From the sequence record MZ681930.1: a stretch of 64,000 nucleotides of DNA, one strand, 5' to 3'. The stretch comes from Enterobacteria phage phiC600P9. This document shows, piece by piece, positions 9,027-48,929 of this stretch. A model generated the notes under the pieces. It had not been told where the DNA came from. It did no database searches and saw nothing but the letters and a program-made list of their open reading frames with translations. The first letter of the stretch is position 1. The number at the start of each line of letters is the position of its first letter. The translations under genes were made by a program, and so were the position numbers.

Positions 9027-10346
9027 TCATACATAAAACACATCATAACGACCACGAGTGACACCAACATAAAGAAGCTGCTGAGCTAGCTCAGCATCCG
9101 CATAATGAATACAAGGCGTATAGATAAAAGCACGATCTACAGACATGCCCTGAGCTTTATGGAATGTTGATGCAGGAAGTGCTTTCACTTTACTAAACTG
9201 TGATTTAGCATCCCAAAAATCACTCCACGGAGCTTTTCCACCTTTATTCCAATTTTTGTAAGTTTCTGCAGTTTTACCTAAAAATAAGTTAAACTTATAC
9301 AGCTCTTCATCAGATGAAATTATTTTAATCTTTTCACGATAATATTCATCATCACCGTAAGTTTCTACTGTTAAATCCCAATGACGAATTAGATATTCTC
9401 CAGGAACACCACGAGCTTTAACAAATGTTGATGTATATTCTGCTTCTATAATACGAACTAATTGCCCGTTATTAAAAATAATTTCTGACACAGGCTTTCC
9501 ATCAATTTTATATGTTTTAATTAATGGTTCCTGCATTACAATAATTTCACCAACGATAAAATCTTTATCGGTTTCAAAAATCTTTTTGCGAATAATGCTA
9601 TTTAACTTATCAACAGATTTATTCGTAAATGCCATTACGCGATTTTCAAACAAATCATCTAGTGATTTTACGATTGAAAAATAATTTACCATAAAATCGC
9701 GTAAAGCGGTATCACCAGTAAATCCACGTACTCCATGCCCGTCAACAACTTTATCATAAATCCACTTACCGTTGCGAACATCAGTAGCTACATCAATAAT
9801 AGGAGCATTACTGCGTTTAACTTCAGTGAGTTCACACTGATAAAAATCTTTGTGCGTAAAGAATGGACTGATATAAGCAGTATTTTCTCCTGGGTCAACA
9901 GGTCTAATTTGCTTATTATCACCTATTCCAATTATAGTACACCACGGCGGAATAGTTGAAAGCAGAATTTTAAATAGCTTTCTATCATACATTGACACTT
10001 CGTCGCAGATTAATACTCTGCATTTAGCCAAATCCGGTACTTCTTTTTGTTCAAAAAGAACGTTTTCTTCGTATGTTACGGGGTTAATTTTAAGAATACT
10101 GTGAATAGTACTCGCTTCTTTCCCTGACAGTTTTGAAAGAATCTTTTTAGCCGCATGTGTAGGAGCTGCTAAAATAATGCCAGTTTCGCCTGTAGATATT
10201 AAAGCTTCAATGATGAACTTAGTAAGAGTAGTCTTACCAGTACCAGCAGGTCCATTAATAGTTACATGATGTTTCTTTTCTTTAATAGCCCTCATAACGA
10301 TGTTAAAGGCATTTTTCTGGCCTTCGGTCAAATCATCAAATGTCAT
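9027..10346 (-). CDS. dda: Dda DNA helicase (SF1B)
   Basis: 439-aa ORF essentially matching T4 Dda as recalled; Walker A GPAGTGKT. Confidence 0.95.
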   Translation of the reverse strand: MTFDDLTEGQKNAFNIVMRAIKEKKHHVTINGPAGTGKTTLTKFIIEALISTGETGIILAAPTHAAKKILSKLSGKEASTIHSILKINPVTYEENVLFEQKEVPDLAKCRVLICDEVSMYDRKLFKILLSTIPPWCTIIGIGDNKQIRPVDPGENTAYISPFFTHKDFYQCELTEVKRSNAPIIDVATDVRNGKWIYDKVVDGHGVRGFTGDTALRDFMVNYFSIVKSLDDLFENRVMAFTNKSVDKLNSIIRKKIFETDKDFIVGEIIVMQEPLIKTYKIDGKPVSEIIFNNGQLVRIIEAEYTSTFVKARGVPGEYLIRHWDLTVETYGDDEYYREKIKIISSDEELYKFNLFLGKTAETYKNWNKGGKAPWSDFWDAKSQFSKVKALPASTFHKAQGMSVDRAFIYTPCIHYADAELAQQLLYVGVTRGRYDVFYV

Positions 10347-10654
10347 CGTAAATTCCCTGCAATTGGTATACTAACAATACGGCCTGTGTCCAGGATTCGT
10401 TGATACAATCTTTGCGTCTCCGCATCTAGTTTAACGTGTTTCATTTCAAGCTTATTAAACCAGAACTTACGCGGAGTTTCGACCATTCTTAGAACTCCCA
10501 TTTTTAAATCTGTTTTATACTGTGTTTTCAAAGTATCGAAAACTTTATCAGCAATCTCCCTTTCAAAAAATACAGCAGGACGATGTTCATCAAGAGGAAC
10601 AGGCACCGCAAATCCATCTTTATCTCTATAAACTATCGCATATACATAAAACAT
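10343..10654 (-). CDS. dda.1-like hypothetical protein
   Basis: 103-aa ORF. Confidence 0.5.
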   Translation of the reverse strand: MFYVYAIVYRDKDGFAVPVPLDEHRPAVFFEREIADKVFDTLKTQYKTDLKMGVLRMVETPRKFWFNKLEMKHVKLDAETQRLYQRILDTGRIVSIPIAGNLR

Positions 10655-10655
10655 A

Positions 10656-11402
10656 TTATCCTCGGATAAGTTTAAAAATTGAACAATTTAGCGGGTATCC
10701 TCTTTTCAGTTTAAATTTATCAATAAAAGACAAGTTTTGATACCGCTCTACACCTTGAATAATTTTATCACACATATCATATTGCATTTCTGCTTCTGAC
10801 AACTTTTTCACAGTTTTCCAATCCGAGCCTTTAAGAAGAACGTTCAATTTAACAACTTCAGCGCCTTCTGCTATACGAGAACCATCAATACGAGCTTTGA
10901 GTGCTATAATCGTTAGCTTAACGTCAGAAGTTTGTTTTGATTTAGAAAGCTGAGAAATGTGCTCAATTCGGTTTTCACGTTTTTTCTGTATAGCTTTAAT
11001 TTGATTATAAGTCTTTTTGATTTTAGCCCATTTCTTTTCATCTAAATTTAGTTTATGAACTTTTTTCGCAGATGAACGACCAATTCGCAAAGCAAATAAA
11101 TCACGCTTTTCAATCAACTCTTCTAAAGTATAATCAGAACGAAATGTATTATACTTTTTCTTTACTGCAATAACATTCCCTTTAATATATCCAACGTTAT
11201 TATCAAAACGTTCTAATGATAATTTCTCTCCTTCAATACGATTATCAAAAGGTTCTCCCGAGTAAGCGCAAACTTTCTGATCTAAAATGTTCTTAATGTA
11301 ATTGAAGTCTAAGTTAAAATCTTTAGAACGTCTTTTGGCAGATGCCTGAGTATGCTCTAGACGACGTGTAATTTTACGAATTTGATTTTTAGACAGTTTC
11401 AT
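10656..11402 (-). CDS. srd: Srd-like protein (putative sigma-factor-related)
   Basis: 248-aa basic ORF at the T4 srd position. Confidence 0.55.
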   Translation of the reverse strand: MKLSKNQIRKITRRLEHTQASAKRRSKDFNLDFNYIKNILDQKVCAYSGEPFDNRIEGEKLSLERFDNNVGYIKGNVIAVKKKYNTFRSDYTLEELIEKRDLFALRIGRSSAKKVHKLNLDEKKWAKIKKTYNQIKAIQKKRENRIEHISQLSKSKQTSDVKLTIIALKARIDGSRIAEGAEVVKLNVLLKGSDWKTVKKLSEAEMQYDMCDKIIQGVERYQNLSFIDKFKLKRGYPLNCSIFKLIRG

Positions 11403-11432
11403 ATTTTTCTCACGGACGGTTAACTACTTATA

Positions 11433-11461
11433 CTATAACATTTTTACTTCAGCTTGTAAAC
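11433..11461 (-). promoter_or_regulatory. early promoter (GTTTAC-N17-TTATAG) for srd
   Basis: minus strand GTTTACAAGCTGAAGTAAAAATGTTATAG. Confidence 0.45.
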
Positions 11462-11475
11462 AACTTTATGAAAAA

Positions 11476-11500
11476 TGCTTTAAAACTTTCATGGTATAAT
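11476..11500 (+). promoter_or_regulatory. plus-strand promoter-like element (MotA box TGCTTTA + 12 nt + extended -10 TGGTATAAT)
   Basis: plus strand aTGCTTTAaaactttcaTGGTATAAT; would fire antisense into modA. Confidence 0.35.
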
Positions 11501-11517
11501 GAATCTAAGTCCTTCCA

Positions 11518-12120
11518 TTATAGATTAAATCCTTCAAAGTCAAGAGTATAGATAGTGTATGTTGAATGCTTTTTATACTCATATCTATCCGCAATTCTAA
11601 ATACACTTCCAGCTGGTATCATTACTTCTTGTTCATCTGAAACTAATTCCATATTACGATAACGATGGCTATCTGGAAACTTAAAACTCGGACTATATTC
11701 TTTACAACGTAGAGCTTTTATAGCATACTCCTGGAAATTAAATACCATAGGAGCTTTGAATTCAAAAATAACTTGTGTATTGTATTCTAATCCAGAAGCA
11801 AAATGTAGAGCTATATTTTTATCATATGAAGCTGATACTACTTTATCAAATGTAATAATATCAATTCCTTGATTTAACGCCTGCTTAGTCTCAACTGGAA
11901 CACCTCTCCAAAGAGGTTTATCGTTTGGAACCAAACGATATTTGATTATTTCATTTAACCAAGAATGATCGTCTGGCTTATTAGTAATACAATGAATTAA
12001 AAGTTCAATTTCAGATAAATTAAATCCTTCAGAAAGTAATTCTTCACGAATAGAAGCACGCACCGATGCATCCATTGATTTGATTTTAAAATCTTTTAAT
12101 TGCATTGCTGAATATTTCAT
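11518..12120 (-). CDS. modA: ADP-ribosyltransferase ModA
   Basis: 200-aa ORF, same length and position as T4 ModA; paralogous to adjacent ORF. Confidence 0.65.
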   Translation of the reverse strand: MKYSAMQLKDFKIKSMDASVRASIREELLSEGFNLSEIELLIHCITNKPDDHSWLNEIIKYRLVPNDKPLWRGVPVETKQALNQGIDIITFDKVVSASYDKNIALHFASGLEYNTQVIFEFKAPMVFNFQEYAIKALRCKEYSPSFKFPDSHRYRNMELVSDEQEVMIPAGSVFRIADRYEYKKHSTYTIYTLDFEGFNL

Positions 12121-12752
12121 TCAACTACCTCAATATCATACACTTTAAATGTTCCAAATGAATCGTGTAATTTTTCTTTTGAAATAGAAGTTATTTTATA
12201 CTTTCCAATTGGAATCATCCATTCTTGTTCACGCACAATCATCATTAAGTTATCAGTACGTTCTGAATCTAATCCATCAGTATCTTCATATGTATACTTA
12301 AACTCAGTATTAGGAGAAGAAAGTATAATATCGCTGATATGGTCAGAATAATTAAAAGCTTTATCAGTTTTTAAGCGAAATATTATTTCAGTGAAATACT
12401 CAACATAAGAAAAACCACATGCTGTGTGCAAACTAGTAGTAAATGAATCTACTCTATTCGTTGAAAACACTTCTCCAACTTGTAAATCTTTAATGAGTTC
12501 TTTTGTCGATTTTGATATACCACGATATAGCTGATAAGGTGATTTAGTTAAATGCTTTTTAATGATTTTATTCAACTGCCGATGAAGAGCTTCATTCTTT
12601 TTGGCTTCCATACATTGCCAAAGAACTGATTGTTCAAAGTCAGTAAATTTTTCACAGACTTTTTTATACATATCATATTGAAAATCAACGCTTTCAGCTT
12701 TTATAGATAACTGTTCAACATCTGCAAGATTAATAATCATGATAGCCTCCAT
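12117..12752 (-). CDS. modB: ADP-ribosyltransferase ModB
   Basis: 211-aa ORF start/stop-coupled to modA. Confidence 0.65.
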   Translation of the reverse strand: MEAIMIINLADVEQLSIKAESVDFQYDMYKKVCEKFTDFEQSVLWQCMEAKKNEALHRQLNKIIKKHLTKSPYQLYRGISKSTKELIKDLQVGEVFSTNRVDSFTTSLHTACGFSYVEYFTEIIFRLKTDKAFNYSDHISDIILSSPNTEFKYTYEDTDGLDSERTDNLMMIVREQEWMIPIGKYKITSISKEKLHDSFGTFKVYDIEVVE

Positions 12753-12767
12753 ATACTTCAGAAGCTA

Positions 12768-12796
12768 TCATATCATTGTTAGGAAGGAAAGTAAAC
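12768..12796 (-). promoter_or_regulatory. early promoter (GTTTAC-N18-TATGAT) for modB/modA
   Basis: plus strand atcatatcattgttaggaaggaaagtaaac. Confidence 0.45.
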
Positions 12797-12807
12797 AACT
12801 TTTTGAA

Positions 12808-12990
12808 TTATTTTGCCCAGGGAGCCCAGGGCGGAGGGTCAAGATGGTATGAAGCTAGTTCTTCTAGAAGAGCATCTGGGGCTTCAATTCCATAATTCTG
12901 TAATACTATACGGTACTCTTTCTTATAATCACTAGAATCATTCTGGATATTCGTAGAATGATTATCTTCTAACATCTCAAATAAATCCAT
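12808..12990 (-). CDS. small acidic hypothetical protein
   Basis: 60-aa ORF. Confidence 0.4.
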   Translation of the reverse strand: MDLFEMLEDNHSTNIQNDSSDYKKEYRIVLQNYGIEAPDALLEELASYHLDPPPWAPWAK

Positions 12991-12998
12991 ATTAATTC

Positions 12999-13469
12999 CT
13001 AGCGATAAAAACCAAATTGACGATTAGCTTCAATAATCTTTCTTTCTTCTTCGGACATTCTCCAGCGTAGTCCAACATCAAAATGAGCCCAGACCATCTT
13101 AACGAATGCATTTATATCTTTAATATCTTCAATAATGAATGTTTTACTTTTAGAAGGTTGACTCGCTAATTTAACTTTATCGTCTTCAAACAGGTCAAAA
13201 AGACCATATTCATGGGCTCTTTTATAGCCTTTAATAGTTAAAGCTTCGGAAGAAGAAAACGGTGAATCAGTATTCTGCAAAATATCTTCAGTATGCTTTA
13301 TAATTAGAATAACATTTTCTGGATATTTTCTTTCTTTTATATCTTTAATTAAAATATCCGGATTTTCTGCTAAAGGAATAATTAATGAGCACTCTTTATC
13401 AAGTGTATTTACCGATTTACCTTCTTTAGACATAAATTCTATTGAATAATGTTTTGCTACTTCAATCAT
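12999..13469 (-). CDS. hypothetical protein
   Basis: 156-aa ORF. Confidence 0.5.
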
Positions 13470-13626
13470 GCGATTTCCTCTTGCCTACTAACGGGCCGTC
13501 AGGAATTTTGTTTTCCTGGATATATTTCTCATTTTCTTCCATCATTTTACTGCCAATTTTAAGAAGCAAATCCATTGCTTCATTTGCTTTAGCCTTGGCC
13601 TCTTCTAGCGTCATATCTCTGTTCAT
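13462..13626 (-). CDS. small hypothetical protein (hand-called)
   Basis: 54-aa [24 protein letters not shown]... filling the gap; ATGA-type overlaps on both sides. Confidence 0.45.
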
Positions 13627-13826
13627 GATTTATCCCCATAGATGTCTCTCATCAATTTAAGCGCTGAGCGTTCTAATTTCTTTTCTTTCTCAATGCTAAT
13701 CATTGATTTCATCCATTCTTCTGATTCGTTCTGCATTTCTTTATTTGCCTGTTCAACCCAACCATCATCAATGTACATTGAGTTTGGTCTATTGAACCAT
13801 TCAAACATTTTCTTCAGAACTTTCAT
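13623..13826 (-). CDS. small hypothetical protein
   Basis: 67-aa ORF. Confidence 0.45.
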
Positions 13827-14298
13827 TTATTTTACCTAAAACAACAGTAGGAGCATCGTCAAATTTATGAATTTTGAGTAAATTTGGATTTAAATTATTC
13901 CATACATAATAAATGAAGTATGATAAAGCATCTTCACTCGCAATTATAAATTTATTTCCTTTATCTATTTTCCAGTCATATACTGAATCGTACGAATAAA
14001 AAGATAAAGGGTTATCATTATATTGTTCTGCGCTAACATTGATGTATTCGGATTTAGTAAATGCTTCAATTGCTCTAAACGGACTATTTGGCACAGTTTC
14101 AATAATTCCGATCTTTTTAAGTTTTATTTCAACATCTTCTGGAACTGGCATTGAAATAAAATCTTCTACTAGATACATGTTATTATTATATCTTTTATCA
14201 ATCATTACTGCTACTGTAATTGGAATATCTTTAGCAAACGCCATGCTATCACTGCTAATATACATTTCAAACAAAATCGCTTCCATAATTTTCCTCAA
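13801..14298 (-). CDS. hypothetical protein (mrh-region)
   Basis: 165-aa ORF. Confidence 0.5.
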
Positions 14299-15389: not shown

Positions 15390-15598
15390 TTTGAATGCTC
15401 TATAATTAATTTTAAGGCTTCTTCACTGACAAAAATTTCATCAGGACCTTCTTCTACAACCCAATCAACCCAATCAACCACACGAAGCTGATTAGATAAG
15501 AGCTCACATACGAGCTCCTTGTCATAATTTTTAAATAGCTGGTCAATACGTTTCTTGCGGGCTTTCTTAAGCTGGCGTTTATTTAAACGAGCCATCAA
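15386..15598 (-). CDS. small hypothetical protein
   Basis: 70-aa ORF coupled to gene 56. Confidence 0.5.
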   Translation of the reverse strand: MMARLNKRQLKKARKKRIDQLFKNYDKELVCELLSNQLRVVDWVDWVVEEGPDEIFVSEEALKLIIEHSK

Positions 15599-16113
15599 TA
15601 ACCTCGGTCTTGACGAGCGAAGTTTTCAGCATTTTTCAGATAATAAAGTTTAAAGATTTCTTCAGCCGTAAGACCGAGACCTTGGAACATGTTCAGAACG
15701 AAATGAAGAATATCAATCATTTCAAATTTAATTTCCAACTGGTCTTGCGGAGACAAATCAGTAATTAGAGTTTCACGACGTTCACCATGCTGTGACTTCC
15801 AAGGTTTCCATACAGCAGATGCATCTTTTTCACCATTGCTCATACCGCCAAGAGATGTCAGAAGTTCACGGAATTCATCGTCAATATAATCTTTTTGATT
15901 ACGCAGCCAATCAACAACTTCGCCTGCAGTAGCCAAATCATCAGGATGACGGTTATATTCAGGTTTATCTTTAGCTAAACGAACCTGCAAAGATTTCTGC
16001 ATATCAAGCATAACTTGCAGTGGGTCTTTTTCATCACCGAGAATATCCCAGTATTCATTTTGAGCTTTATCAGCGCCTTCGATCAGATGACTACATTCGT
16101 TGAAATGTGGCAT
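15595..16113 (-). CDS. 56: dCTP pyrophosphatase (dCTPase-dUTPase)
   Basis: 172-aa ORF closely matching T4 gp56 as recalled (NEYWDILGDEKDPLQVMLDMQ..., EEIFKLYYLKN). Confidence 0.9.
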   Translation of the reverse strand: MPHFNECSHLIEGADKAQNEYWDILGDEKDPLQVMLDMQKSLQVRLAKDKPEYNRHPDDLATAGEVVDWLRNQKDYIDDEFRELLTSLGGMSNGEKDASAVWKPWKSQHGERRETLITDLSPQDQLEIKFEMIDILHFVLNMFQGLGLTAEEIFKLYYLKNAENFARQDRGY

Positions 16114-16149: not shown

Positions 16150-16175
16150 ATTATACAATAAATATATAAAGCAAT
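16150..16175 (-). promoter_or_regulatory. middle promoter (MotA box TTGCTTTA + 11 nt + TATAAT) for gene 56
   Basis: minus strand ATTGCTTTATATATTTATTGTATAAT. Confidence 0.5.
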
Positions 16176-16387: not shown

Positions 16388-17412
16388 ATCTTAGCATATT
16401 TAGATAGCCGCATTTTAGCCATCAGCCCCTGTGCAATATTATTTTTCATATATTCCATAATTTGTTCAGGGGTTGCACCTTCCTTTCTAATCATATCATT
16501 GACATCTTTTGATTTCCAGGGAGATTTGTCCCAAAACATAACCCTTTCTCCTGCATCAACTAATTTAGTCATTCGTTTAATAGTATCAGGGTGACGAGGT
16601 TCATTATCCAAAACCCATACTCGTCTATCTTTAAATGGAACAATTTCTAGGTCTAATTGACCACCTGTAATAGCTATACCATTTTCAATAAAAAGTGAAT
16701 CTATAGGTCCTTCTAGAACATATACATCACCATCTTTAACCCGTTCGACTCCATAGATTTTTGTTGCCTCAGGATAAGCTTTGATGGTGATATATTTTTG
16801 AGGAGCATCTTTCTTTAATGCACGTCCTTGAAAAGACTCAGCTTTTCCATTAGCATTATAAATTGGAATAACAAGACGAGGCTCAGGTATTTCCTTTTTA
16901 TATGTTCCTGGTGCTATACTATTAACTAATTTAGGCCATTCGGTTGTAAACCAAAGATATTTCCATTTATCCTTTGGAATACAACGAGCTTTTACGTATT
17001 TTATAATTGGATGGTCTTCCGCCAGTTTATCTAATCTAACGCATGACGGAAGAGATTTAATTATTTTCTTCTCAGGTTGTTTAGGAAGTTCTTTAAGTTT
17101 TTCTACTGGACGACTTTTACCTTTTTCTTTTCTTATTTCAAAGATATACTCACGATATAAATCGGGTTCAAACTCCTTTAAATATATTCCGATTGGTGCA
17201 TGATAGTTACAGTTATAACAATGAATATTTCCTTCATTATTATCGCCATAATACCATCCACGGGCTTTATTTTGGTCGGTTTTTGAATCTCCACAAACAG
17301 GGCATCTAAACCGCAATTTAAAAGTTGAACTATTATTTACTTGTGTGAATTTAGGTAAATGAGCTAATGCACGATATGCAAACTCATTATCAATCCAAGG
17401 TATTGATGACAT
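16384..17412 (-). CDS. 61: DNA primase
   Basis: 342-aa ORF matching T4 gp61 length; zinc ribbon CPVCGDS...CYNCNYH plus Toprim-like region. Confidence 0.9.
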   Translation of the reverse strand: MSSIPWIDNEFAYRALAHLPKFTQVNNSSTFKLRFRCPVCGDSKTDQNKARGWYYGDNNEGNIHCYNCNYHAPIGIYLKEFEPDLYREYIFEIRKEKGKSRPVEKLKELPKQPEKKIIKSLPSCVRLDKLAEDHPIIKYVKARCIPKDKWKYLWFTTEWPKLVNSIAPGTYKKEIPEPRLVIPIYNANGKAESFQGRALKKDAPQKYITIKAYPEATKIYGVERVKDGDVYVLEGPIDSLFIENGIAITGGQLDLEIVPFKDRRVWVLDNEPRHPDTIKRMTKLVDAGERVMFWDKSPWKSKDVNDMIRKEGATPEQIMEYMKNNIAQGLMAKMRLSKYAKI

Positions 17413-42438: not shown

Positions 42439-42908
42439 TTTAAACTCTTTCTAAGCTGCTTCTTAAATGAAGCTATTAATTGTGTTTTGGTGTCAGATTC
42501 ATTATATTCAAATCCTCTTTGAAGCATCTCAGCCATCATTTCCTCTTTTCCTAAACGAGAAAATTCCTTTGATTTATCTCCAACGAAGTTAGGGTGAATA
42601 TTATTTTGGGTGTAATCGGATTTTAAATAAGTAAGTAAATTTTCTAACCATTCAAGATAATCAACACCTTGTCCCTTTAAGCCAGAACGATTAAATTTAT
42701 GCTTCATTTGACCTTCTGCAGCATTACAGAGATTACACAGCAACCCACGTACCTTTCCTGCTTTCGGTCCATTTAATTCATGGTCATGGTCAAGATGATT
42801 AGCTTGAACATCAGGATTTAATTCTCGTTGGCAAATTAAGCATTTACCGTTTTGTGCATCATAAAATTTTTGTTTTTCTTCTTTGTACAATTTGCCAGTC
42901 AATAACAT
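42435..42908 (-). CDS. 49: recombination endonuclease VII (Holliday junction resolvase)
   Basis: 157-aa ORF essentially matching T4 endo VII as recalled (CLICQRELNPD...HLDHDHELNG). Confidence 0.95.
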   Translation of the reverse strand: MLLTGKLYKEEKQKFYDAQNGKCLICQRELNPDVQANHLDHDHELNGPKAGKVRGLLCNLCNAAEGQMKHKFNRSGLKGQGVDYLEWLENLLTYLKSDYTQNNIHPNFVGDKSKEFSRLGKEEMMAEMLQRGFEYNESDTKTQLIASFKKQLRKSLK

Positions 42909-47040: not shown

Positions 47041-47967
47041 TTAAGATTTAAGTAAATCAACAATTTTAATTAACTTTTCACGCTCAGATTTAGCTTTACT
47101 ATTCAGTCCAGATAGTCTGAAAATTTCATCATCATATTGTTGAATAGAAATATTCAGCTCTTCAATTTGCTTATTAAAATAATCAATTTGTTCAGAATGT
47201 TTTTCGTTACTACGAACTGGTACAGGTTTCGTAGGCAATGTAGTTGAACTGGATTCATCCGGGCGATAAATCAAAATGCAATTTGAACCAATCGGGCATT
47301 TAGCACCAGACGTATATTCTAATGTTCCAGCTTCTTTTAAAACTTCAAAAGCTAAACAGAGATGATGCCCCATATTAACATAATATGTAGAGTGAGCTCT
47401 GATGTAATAATCATCTCCACGAATACTAAATTTAAAGCATTTAAGGTCTTCTGTATTATTGGTCTTAAAAATCATTTGTTTATCTAGACCTTTAGCTAAT
47501 CGAGCGCCCAATGCTAATAATCGTCGTTGATTTTCCCACAAATCCGCTATCATTTGATCGAATGATAATTTTGGCATCAGTCGACCATAAAGGTCATATC
47601 CTTTATTATAATTACGAAGGATTTCACTCGCGTTAATACGAGACAATGCTCCAATTTTATTAAGGGCTTTCATAATGCGATTAGATAAACTCATTCCAGA
47701 CCCATTTGTTCGATGTAGATGTTTTTCTAATCCAAATCCAATATCAACTTTAAACTTATCTAAAATTTCGGCATGAACATCTCTGTCAATAACATTCAAA
47801 TTCAGAGTTGAGTTAAATCTATGAAAAAATTTATCTGGCTCTCCACGGCGAAATACAGTCCATTCATTCATCATTTTTTTATTAACTAAAGATTTAATTA
47901 CTGCATTGACATTATTAATTACTACTGACATATTTTCCTCACTCAATTTCAATTTTACTAAATACAC
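47041..47967 (-). CDS. hypothetical protein with C-terminal coiled coil
   Basis: 308-aa ORF. Confidence 0.5.
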   Translation of the reverse strand: MYLVKLKLSEENMSVVINNVNAVIKSLVNKKMMNEWTVFRRGEPDKFFHRFNSTLNLNVIDRDVHAEILDKFKVDIGFGLEKHLHRTNGSGMSLSNRIMKALNKIGALSRINASEILRNYNKGYDLYGRLMPKLSFDQMIADLWENQRRLLALGARLAKGLDKQMIFKTNNTEDLKCFKFSIRGDDYYIRAHSTYYVNMGHHLCLAFEVLKEAGTLEYTSGAKCPIGSNCILIYRPDESSSTTLPTKPVPVRSNEKHSEQIDYFNKQIEELNISIQQYDDEIFRLSGLNSKAKSEREKLIKIVDLLKS

Positions 47968-48346
47968 AGAATATGATTGAACAGACTACATAAGCGCCAC
48001 ACACGGATTGAACTAATACCATCCCAAAGAACCAAACAATATTATCAAACAGTGTCTGTTTTACGTCGAAAGGACGTAAACTTACAGTAATATTATCACC
48101 TTTTTCTATTGAAGAATACATCTCTGGGGAAATATATTCACTAAATCTATAACCGTCTTTAAGTTCATATACGGCAATAAACGATAAACTAGACCCTTTT
48201 CCTTGTGTTCCTGTAATGGTATTAACTACAGTAACATCATAATCTTTATAATGCATATAATCATTAATTGCGTAATAACCGTATGCAACTACTACACATA
48301 AACAACATATCAATAAATTCAATCTTTTAATTATCAACTGTTTCAT
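47939..48346 (-). CDS. membrane protein
   Basis: 135-aa ORF with TM segments at both ends. Confidence 0.5.
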   Translation of the reverse strand: MKQLIIKRLNLLICCLCVVVAYGYYAINDYMHYKDYDVTVVNTITGTQGKGSSLSFIAVYELKDGYRFSEYISPEMYSSIEKGDNITVSLRPFDVKQTLFDNIVWFFGMVLVQSVCGAYVVCSIIFCVFSKIEIE

Positions 48347-48401
48347 AATAATCTCAATTAAAAGGGCTTAGAACCATTATACCATCCTTGGTATAAAGCG
48401 G

Positions 48402-48929
48402 TTATGCGAGTACCGTCTTTAACCGTTCTTCAAACTTCCGAAGAGTATTTTGGCGTTCAGCTCTTTGCTTTTTGTAAGTTTCAATACGCTCTGAAATGAG
48501 AGTGTATCGTTCATTTACTGATTCTTTCATAAAATCAGGAATTTCACGAGAAGCTTTAATCTCGTCAAATTTATCAATAACAGCTTGCTCTTCAGCAATT
48601 AAGTTATCATACATTAAAATATCTTTCTTGATGAACTCAATATCTTCTCGAGTTACACGAGATAATTTAGATGCTTTATCCTTTTTGTACTGTTCGTTAG
48701 TATCACGAGACCAGTGTAATGTACGATTTTTATTCGTATTTTTGTAAATTTCGACAATACCAATCTCATCAATAATAACGATCCAATTCCAACGGGATTT
48801 GTAAATTTGTCCTCCATCAACTGTGATTTCACCTCCGATTGAGATGTCATTAAAGAACTTGCTTTGTGCTTCAGATTTAAATTTACCATCGTTGTAATTT
48901 ACCAAGTTGAAAATATCTTTAGCATTCAT
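48402..48929 (-). CDS. hypothetical protein with C-terminal coiled coil
   Basis: 175-aa ORF. Confidence 0.5.
   Translation of the reverse strand: MNAKDIFNLVNYNDGKFKSEAQSKFFNDISIGGEITVDGGQIYKSRWNWIVIIDEIGIVEIYKNTNKNRTLHWSRDTNEQYKKDKASKLSRVTREDIEFIKKDILMYDNLIAEEQAVIDKFDEIKASREIPDFMKESVNERYTLISERIETYKKQRAERQNTLRKFEERLKTVLA

Follow-up and report, generated by a model that had tools for sequence, protein, structure and literature searches.

A middle-promoter-like element consisting of a MotA box and a -10 hexamer lies just outside the 3' end of modA and is directed into modA and modB, against all of the genes around it. It was identified in a 64-kb stretch of T4-like phage DNA; this whole stretch is referred to as the window. 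Its positions 11300-11700 (401 bp) are 100% identical to the Tequatrovirus Enterobacteria phage phiC600P9, and identity to T4 is ~94%. Equivalent elements were found next to the ADP-ribosyltransferase genes of divergent Tevenvirinae. Judging from sequence and conservation, the element would appear to be an unmapped orphan within a well-known class of promoters. The comparative support for the element is unusually strong, and there is good reason to regard it as a genuine MotA/AsiA-dependent middle promoter. It is probably a real control element that has not been studied previously. Transcription at the element, its dependence on MotA and the repression of modA/modB are what we infer from these data, and we place a regulatory consequence of this kind at somewhat short of an even chance. 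The whole reading, in which convergent antisense transcription from a MotA/AsiA promoter ends ModA/ModB expression at the onset of the middle mode, strikes us as finely balanced between right and wrong.

Sequence of the element and layout of the locus

The minus strand carries every gene around the element, including dda, dda.1, srd, modA and modB, and the element is housed in the 115-bp spacer between srd and modA (Table 1). The T4 middle promoter consensus consists of (a/t)3TGCTTtA, 12 ± 1 bp and TAtaaT, and about half of the promoters have a TGn (Hinton, 2010; PMC2988021). On the plus strand, TGCTTTA can be read directly at 11476-11482 with AAAAA immediately 5' of it, and AAATGCTTTA at 11473-11482 agrees with the MotA box (a/t)(a/t)(a/t)TGCTTtA near -30. 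The spacer between TGCTTTA and TATAAT reads aaactttcaTGg; its 12 bp are within the 12 ± 1 bp between box and -10, and the hexamer agrees with TAtaaT. The original prediction of a perfect MotA box at middle-promoter spacing with an extended -10 is therefore borne out by the letters at 11476-11500. The 12-nt gap that it gave holds between TGCTTTA and TATAAT, but not up to TGGTATAAT, where the gap is 9 nt.

The predicted transcription start, A11507, is 7 nt past the -10 and 11 nt beyond the modA stop codon, with transcription aimed inward, in line with the earlier claim that the element is antisense to modA/modB. The claim that it faces away from a minus-strand srd promoter also stands, with TTTACA/TATAGT read at 11460-11432. 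The two promoters are back-to-back in the window, and 15 bp separate the srd -35 from the MotA box. A T4-type srd early promoter is annotated in the record of phage SA21RB, as the sole promoter annotation at this locus. The early promoter upstream of modB corresponds to Pe12.8 (PMC6024815).

Table 1. Features of the srd-modA-modB locus, in coordinates of the window.
Feature	Position	Strand	Description
srd	10656-11402	-	Gene across the 115-bp spacer from modA
srd early promoter	11432-11460	-	TTTACA (11460-11455), 17 nt, TATAGT (11437-11432), with TG
MotA box with A/T-rich 5' flank	11473-11482	+	AAA-TGCTTTA, centred near -30 of the predicted start
Spacer	11483-11494	+	12 nt; last three bases TGG form a TGn extended -10 (TG at 11492-11493)
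Sigma70 -10 hexamer	11495-11500	+	TATAAT
Discriminator/start region	11501-11509	+	GAATCT-AAG, fits G-R-W-T-Y-H-R-R-G
Predicted non-coding antisense transcript	11507-11948	+	Minimal extent if ended at the tandem hairpins, otherwise through modB
modA	11518-12120	-	RNA polymerase alpha ADP-ribosyltransferase; gene entered by the promoter
Two adjacent hairpins inside modA	11902-11940	+	-16.3 kcal/mol, z = -2.9; the second followed by TTTGATTATTT
modB	12117-12752	-	Second ADP-ribosyltransferase, co-transcribed with modA; next on the antisense path
Early-type promoter 5' of modB	12767-12795	-	TTTACT, 17 nt, TATGAT, with TG; converges with the antisense promoter

Similar sites in the window

The pattern TGCTTTA-N11-13-TATAAT has three matches in the 64 kb, compared with 0.06 expected, and none of 100 shuffled sequences reached three. 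Of the three, only the modA element is on the plus strand, the remaining two being on the gene-coding minus strand. A relaxed scan of the window returned 17 sites, 12 of them on the minus strand, when 4.8 were expected, and in a still looser scan the modA element was the only plus-strand site with a perfect TATAAT. These window statistics alone make a chance occurrence unlikely yet possible, so that the comparative evidence is decisive.

Two other sites resemble the modA element beyond the -10. Middle-promoter-like sites were seen on the minus strand at 48403..48367 (CCGCTTTA-N12-TATAAT) and 42529..42494 (TGCTTCA-N13-TATAAT), and both have TATAATG[GA][AT]TCT in common with the modA element; the letters following their -10 hexamers, ahead of minus-strand genes, are TATAATGGTTCTAAG and TATAATGAATCTGAC, respectively. 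The sequence past the -10 is not peculiar to the modA locus. Directly downstream of the 48403 site is a minus-strand ORF of 135 aa (47939-48346). Both sites are close to the positions given in T4 for PnrdC and P55.8(2), and these identities are putative. Another perfect minus-strand match, TGCTTTA-N11-TATAAT at 16150-16173, is upstream of the ORF at 15595-16113 and may be T4 P56/69, the primer promoter of oriA.

Conservation of the element

T4 contains an identical 25-mer: its box occupies 11866-11872, its -10 occupies 11885-11890, and transcription is predicted to start at 11897. T4 coordinates at the modA locus are converted to those of the window by subtracting 390. In an alignment of 18 Tequatrovirus sequences, both blocks and the spacing between them are kept in all 18, and the TGn and the -10 are invariant. 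The sole change in the box, from TGCTTTA to TGCTTCA in one phage, affects a position that is permissive for t/c. The remaining substitutions in the element are confined to the spacer, at 11486 and 11491, and indels in the alignment are located solely between the element and the srd -35. Divergence in Tequatrovirus is low (pi ~0.03), and the evidence from the 18 sequences is therefore supportive rather than conclusive.

Outside Tequatrovirus, the ModA homologs are only 25-36% identical. Seven GenBank loci were examined (two Mosigvirus, three Dhakavirus, one Karamvirus and Klebsiella phage Roth68), and all seven have TGCTTT[A/T/C], 12-13 nt and TATAATG in the spacer 3' of the ADP-ribosyltransferase gene, antisense to the gene. 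To extend the comparison, IMG/VR was scanned with an alignment of six Srd proteins, replacing a scan with the single ModA protein that returned 6 close relatives only. The Srd scan yielded 36 loci with Srd identities from 99% down to 31%. The element is present in 35 of them and spans at least 10 further lineages, in which the flanking proteins are 25-50% identical. Over the 118.7 kb of the 36 loci, NGCTTNN-N11-13-TATAATG matches 35 times on the antisense strand, once in each element-bearing locus, and not at all on the sense strand.

The position of the element is also constrained. In 34 of the 35 loci, the predicted start is located 6-39 nt past the stop codon of an ADP-ribosyltransferase gene of 200-247 aa. 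The exception is L044, with a reported distance of 109 nt; this is probably an artefact of ORF calling, because the distance is 39 nt in sister loci whose start coordinate is identical.

The pattern of conservation within the element is that of a promoter. Among representatives of 12 lineages, 11 have TGCTTT[A/T/C] as the box and the remaining one has CGCTTTT; the spacing is 12 or 13 in all 12, with unrelated spacer sequences. TATAAT is invariant across all 53 element-bearing homologous loci. The nine bases past the -10 fit G-R-W-T-Y-H-R-R-G across the lineages; G at position 1 and T at position 4 are found in all 12, and G at position 9 in 11 of them. Fixed blocks at a fixed distance with a free spacer suggest a bipartite protein-binding site, that is, a promoter, rather than a helix in RNA or a constraint from coding. 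Only ~5 of the 12 lineages have the TGn and ~7 lack it, which places the extended -10 outside the conserved core. There is no -35, and activity in most lineages would therefore need MotA. Homologs of MotA occur in 1141 phage records, among them the aligned relative G9062 and phages of Klebsiella and Enterobacter; motA itself is outside the 64-kb window.

The only locus of the 36 without the element is that of Serratia phage PS2 (L060, 1100-1320), in which the spacer between the ADP-ribosyltransferase gene and srd is 27 bp. Cronobacter phage VP8, ~80% identical in DNA over the region, encodes MotA. Given its absence in PS2, the element is not indispensable.

Comparison with known promoters

The element is similar to T4 MotA/AsiA middle promoters such as PuvsX and PrIIB2 in its MotA box, 12-bp spacing, perfect -10 and optional TGn. 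The G-rich start of its discriminator is also found at other middle-promoter-like sites in the window and at P34i. Unlike T4 middle promoters, it points against every neighbouring gene and lacks a gene of its own to express.

The element is missing among the 58 identified T4 middle promoters, and the table of these promoters has no entry between Pdda.1 (11138) and P56/69 (16813) (Hinton, 2010; PMC2988021). Neither a promoter nor an origin is annotated at the element in the T4 RefSeq and GenBank records, and a full-text literature search returned no description of an antisense transcript at modA; a DksA RNA-seq table lists counts by gene only. A dRNA-seq study of T4 (GSE255091) gives 150 phage start sites, of which 22 are antisense; in its text supplement, the start-site table apart, no coordinate begins with 1189. 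The orthologous site in RB69 has been predicted as a middle promoter, Pm:12081, on the plus strand with an HMM score of 7.9 (Nolan et al., 2006, Additional file 4). It has TGCTTTA at 12090-12096 and TATAAT at 12110-12115 on the plus strand, between srd and modA. Pm:12081 was obtained by computation only, and its orientation, its conservation and the missing gene were not discussed in that study.

T4 is the reference for how phages take over transcription, and 30 years of cataloguing its middle promoters have left out this perfect, deeply conserved site. If active, it would add a regulatory layer on ModA, which acts on RNA polymerase, and on ModB, which acts on the translation apparatus. It would also provide a concrete element for mutational studies of early-gene switch-off; its -10 is outside any coding sequence, so that mutating it should be easy.

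A possible role in ending ModA/ModB expression

The element and the early promoters suggest how modA and modB could be controlled. A T4-type early promoter precedes the ADP-ribosyltransferase gene or genes in the five loci scanned. With the early promoter at the 5' end and the element at the 3' end, the cassette is bracketed by a converging early/middle promoter pair. In the model that we propose, unmodified sigma70 polymerase would transcribe modB-modA from 12795-12767 early in the infection. Once AsiA and MotA have accumulated, AsiA-remodelled sigma70 together with MotA would engage TGCTTTA/TATAAT and start transcription at about A11507. The product would be a non-coding transcript complementary to the modA/modB mRNA, and the polymerases producing it would run head-on into those from the early promoter. 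Convergent transcription and RNA duplexes could then end the expression of the toxic ADP-ribosyltransferases as the middle mode begins. The target would be ModA, and in T4-like phages also ModB. The TGn in T4-like phages may allow a low level of promoter activity in the absence of MotA.

The proposed shut-off fits with three points. ModA synthesis is described as highly toxic to E. coli (PMC2988021), ModA and ModB are classed as early proteins, and the promoter would be tied to the activator of the early-to-middle transition. Counting against the model, an antisense RNA that starts where the gene ends is poorly placed to block translation initiation directly. That the Tevenvirinae share a conserved MotA-triggered cis-antisense timer, which extinguishes ModA/ModB through convergent transcription and RNA duplexes, is put forward here as a tentative proposal. 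If true, it would represent a specific, hard-wired shut-off of early genes, a step in T4 that reviews describe as unexplained.

The arrangement is reminiscent of cis-antisense RNAs on toxic genes, as in the logic of type I toxin-antitoxin systems, in that the promoter is opposite the gene for a toxic product and the transcripts would be fully complementary. It differs from antitoxin-style RNAs of type I in that the predicted start is at the 3' end of the target and not over its RBS, and in that the timing would be set by a phage activator and not by RNA stability. Antisense transcription has been described for T4 gene 32 (Belin et al., 1987, as cited in PMC2988021).

Alternative explanations

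The position of the element next to the srd early promoter could point to a competition between the two promoters. MotA/AsiA-polymerase at the element could occlude polymerase at Pe(srd) where the promoters are back-to-back, or collide with it where they are face-to-face, and turn off early transcription of srd-dda.1 in the middle mode, with the RNA as a by-product. The mechanism by which T4 early promoters are shut off is stated to be unknown (PMC2988021), and the geometry in several phages would allow interference. In T4-like phages the MotA box is 15 bp from the srd -35, in the UP-element zone, a distance that shrinks to 8 bp in Dhakavirus. In Karamvirus the promoters are face-to-face with only 13 bp between their -10 hexamers, and an open complex at one would preclude an open complex at the other. 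However, the two-promoter arrangement is not conserved. The element and the srd early promoter are back-to-back in the T4-like phages, Mosigvirus, Dhakavirus and the L055/L056 group, and face-to-face in Karamvirus, the L049 group and Roth68. In the lineage of L047, L048 and L058, a 63-aa ORF has been inserted and the srd early promoter is found with srd ~225 bp away, and the element is still beside modA at its 3' end. The invariant relation is with the 3' end of the ADP-ribosyltransferase gene, into which the element fires. This constant tie to the modA stop codon weakens a model based purely on promoter occlusion, and we consider promoter competition to be unlikely as the function of the element.

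A role as the primer promoter of a replication origin, similar to oriF or oriG, is slightly less probable still. In this case the transcript would persist as an R-loop, be processed by T4 RNase H and prime a rightward leading strand, with no role at modA; the locus would then be an unrecognised origin. Both oriF and oriG consist of a middle-mode promoter and a downstream unwinding element (PMC3016281), and the oriG primer RNA runs opposite to gene 34 according to T4 RefSeq, which is a direct precedent for an antisense middle promoter with no ORF. The core of the oriG/ori(34) promoter P34i, TGCTTCA-N13-TATAATGG, resembles the modA element, with nothing coding downstream; its -10 and following letters in T4 are TATAATGGTCCC. 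Like the modA element, P34i is a MotA-type promoter whose RNA is opposite an adjacent protein gene. In contrast, P34i is inside a late gene and belongs to an experimentally defined origin with an unwinding element, whereas the modA element is just outside an early gene. The origins annotated in T4 RefSeq as rep_origin include oriG at 152947 and oriA at 16763, and none is found in 10300-13500. Whole-genome arrays gave oriA, C, E, F and G only (PMC3016281).

The base composition downstream of the element is a crude measure and a weak test for an unwinding element: in all 12 lineages the downstream A+T is close to that of the surroundings, with no distinctive enrichment. A+T at +1 to +100 is 0.70, compared with 0.68-0.69 for the locus, and the best 40-bp window reaches 0.75, compared with a genome-wide mean maximum of 0.76. 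By the same crude metric oriG reaches only 0.78, and the weakness of the test follows from this failure to single out the oriG unwinding element. We also considered a link to oriA and rejected it, since oriA is located at T4 16763, ~4.9 kb away and on the other strand, and uses the P56/69 transcript.

Sequence conservation by itself is neutral with regard to the strand, and the element could in principle serve the sense strand, either as an UP element of srd or as an RNA signal in the modA 3' UTR or srd 5' UTR, with the promoter match being incidental. The A/T-rich MotA-box region is at ~-45 to -60 of Pe(srd) in T4-like phages, Mosigvirus and Dhakavirus. In Karamvirus, the L049 group and Roth68, however, the element is downstream of the srd early promoter and cannot be an UP element there, and in the L047 group the distance of ~225 bp is far from the UP-element position of ~-40 to -60. 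As for an RNA signal, the srd mRNA includes the element in only some of the lineages, and no covarying helix was found. Conservation coincides with the two promoter blocks, which are 12-13 bp apart, and leaves the spacer unconstrained; the sequence past the -10 recurs at middle-promoter-like sites located ahead of genes. Together with the constant tie to the modA stop codon, which argues against both an UP element and an srd-leader signal, these features make a sense-strand function very improbable.

Least probable is that A/T-rich intergenic DNA produced the match by chance, or that the site looks like a promoter but is silent and has no function: the element is not among the mapped T4 middle promoters, consensus-like T4 middle sites that are silent in vivo do exist, the documented cases having GATT as the box centre (PMC2988021), and ~0.03 perfect matches are expected per strand of the window, but the fortuitous match that the original prediction had allowed for is ruled out by conservation in 18 of 18 close relatives and, at the same place and in the same orientation despite neighbours of 25-50% identity and with no opposite-strand match in 118.7 kb, in 35 of 36 wider loci.

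The predicted antisense transcript

Transcription from the element would encounter no obvious gene. The absence of a following plus-strand ORF had been claimed before, and accordingly no ATG-start ORF of at least 75 aa was found on the plus strand over the next 10 kb and none of at least 30 aa in 9.5-14 kb. A small protein product was rejected, since the plus strand offers just shadow ORFs that start with GTG or TTG, none of them conserved. The idea of a structured small RNA was also rejected, with no Rfam match and with a predicted fold of the first 444 nt similar to that of shuffled sequences (z = -1.4).

The transcript could be ended within modA. On the plus strand a T-rich tract comes after the hairpin pair at 11902-11940, making the second hairpin a possible intrinsic terminator, at which an antisense RNA of ~440 nt would end. 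The pair is kept in T4-like phages, and no positional equivalent of an antisense terminator was found in four other genera. Without equivalent hairpins in these genera, a discrete small RNA is unsupported as a conserved product. The hairpins are formed by near-perfect palindromes in modA that cover the codons for YRLVPND/KPLWRG and fold on both strands (z ~ -3). Among T4-like phages, the loop of the second palindrome alternates between GGAACC and GGTTCC; this two-base change preserves the palindrome and swaps Val and Glu. Conservation of synonymous sites in modA is not clearly elevated, the dips being non-significant and the divergence among T4-like phages too low.

Terminator-like hairpins are unevenly distributed around the element. 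In 9500-14000, where all genes are on the minus strand, six of the seven such hairpins are on the plus strand, compared with 1.7 expected for both strands together. The following 20 kb likewise has only six on the plus strand. The plus-strand excess could result from selection to stop antisense transcription.

Other features of the locus

The srd 5' leader contains a conserved motif, CGTCCGTAAGA(C/T)G, at 11405-11425 on the minus strand, just upstream of the srd RBS, where it may form a small hairpin. The motif is kept from T4 to Klebsiella phages, and in Roth68 its location is within the spacer of the antisense promoter. At the motif, 7 nt are deleted in the window phage and in four relatives. 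The inserted 63-aa ORF of L047, L048 and L058 (MHKFLIMLWYT..., ~1027-1218) has its start codon 15 nt from the MotA box. In T2-type phages (L011 and L014, which are T2 and SV76), the modB region (1735-2203 of the locus) is annotated as a 42-aa ORF plus a shorter gene for an adenylribosylating enzyme, which suggests that modB is disrupted or rearranged in these phages.
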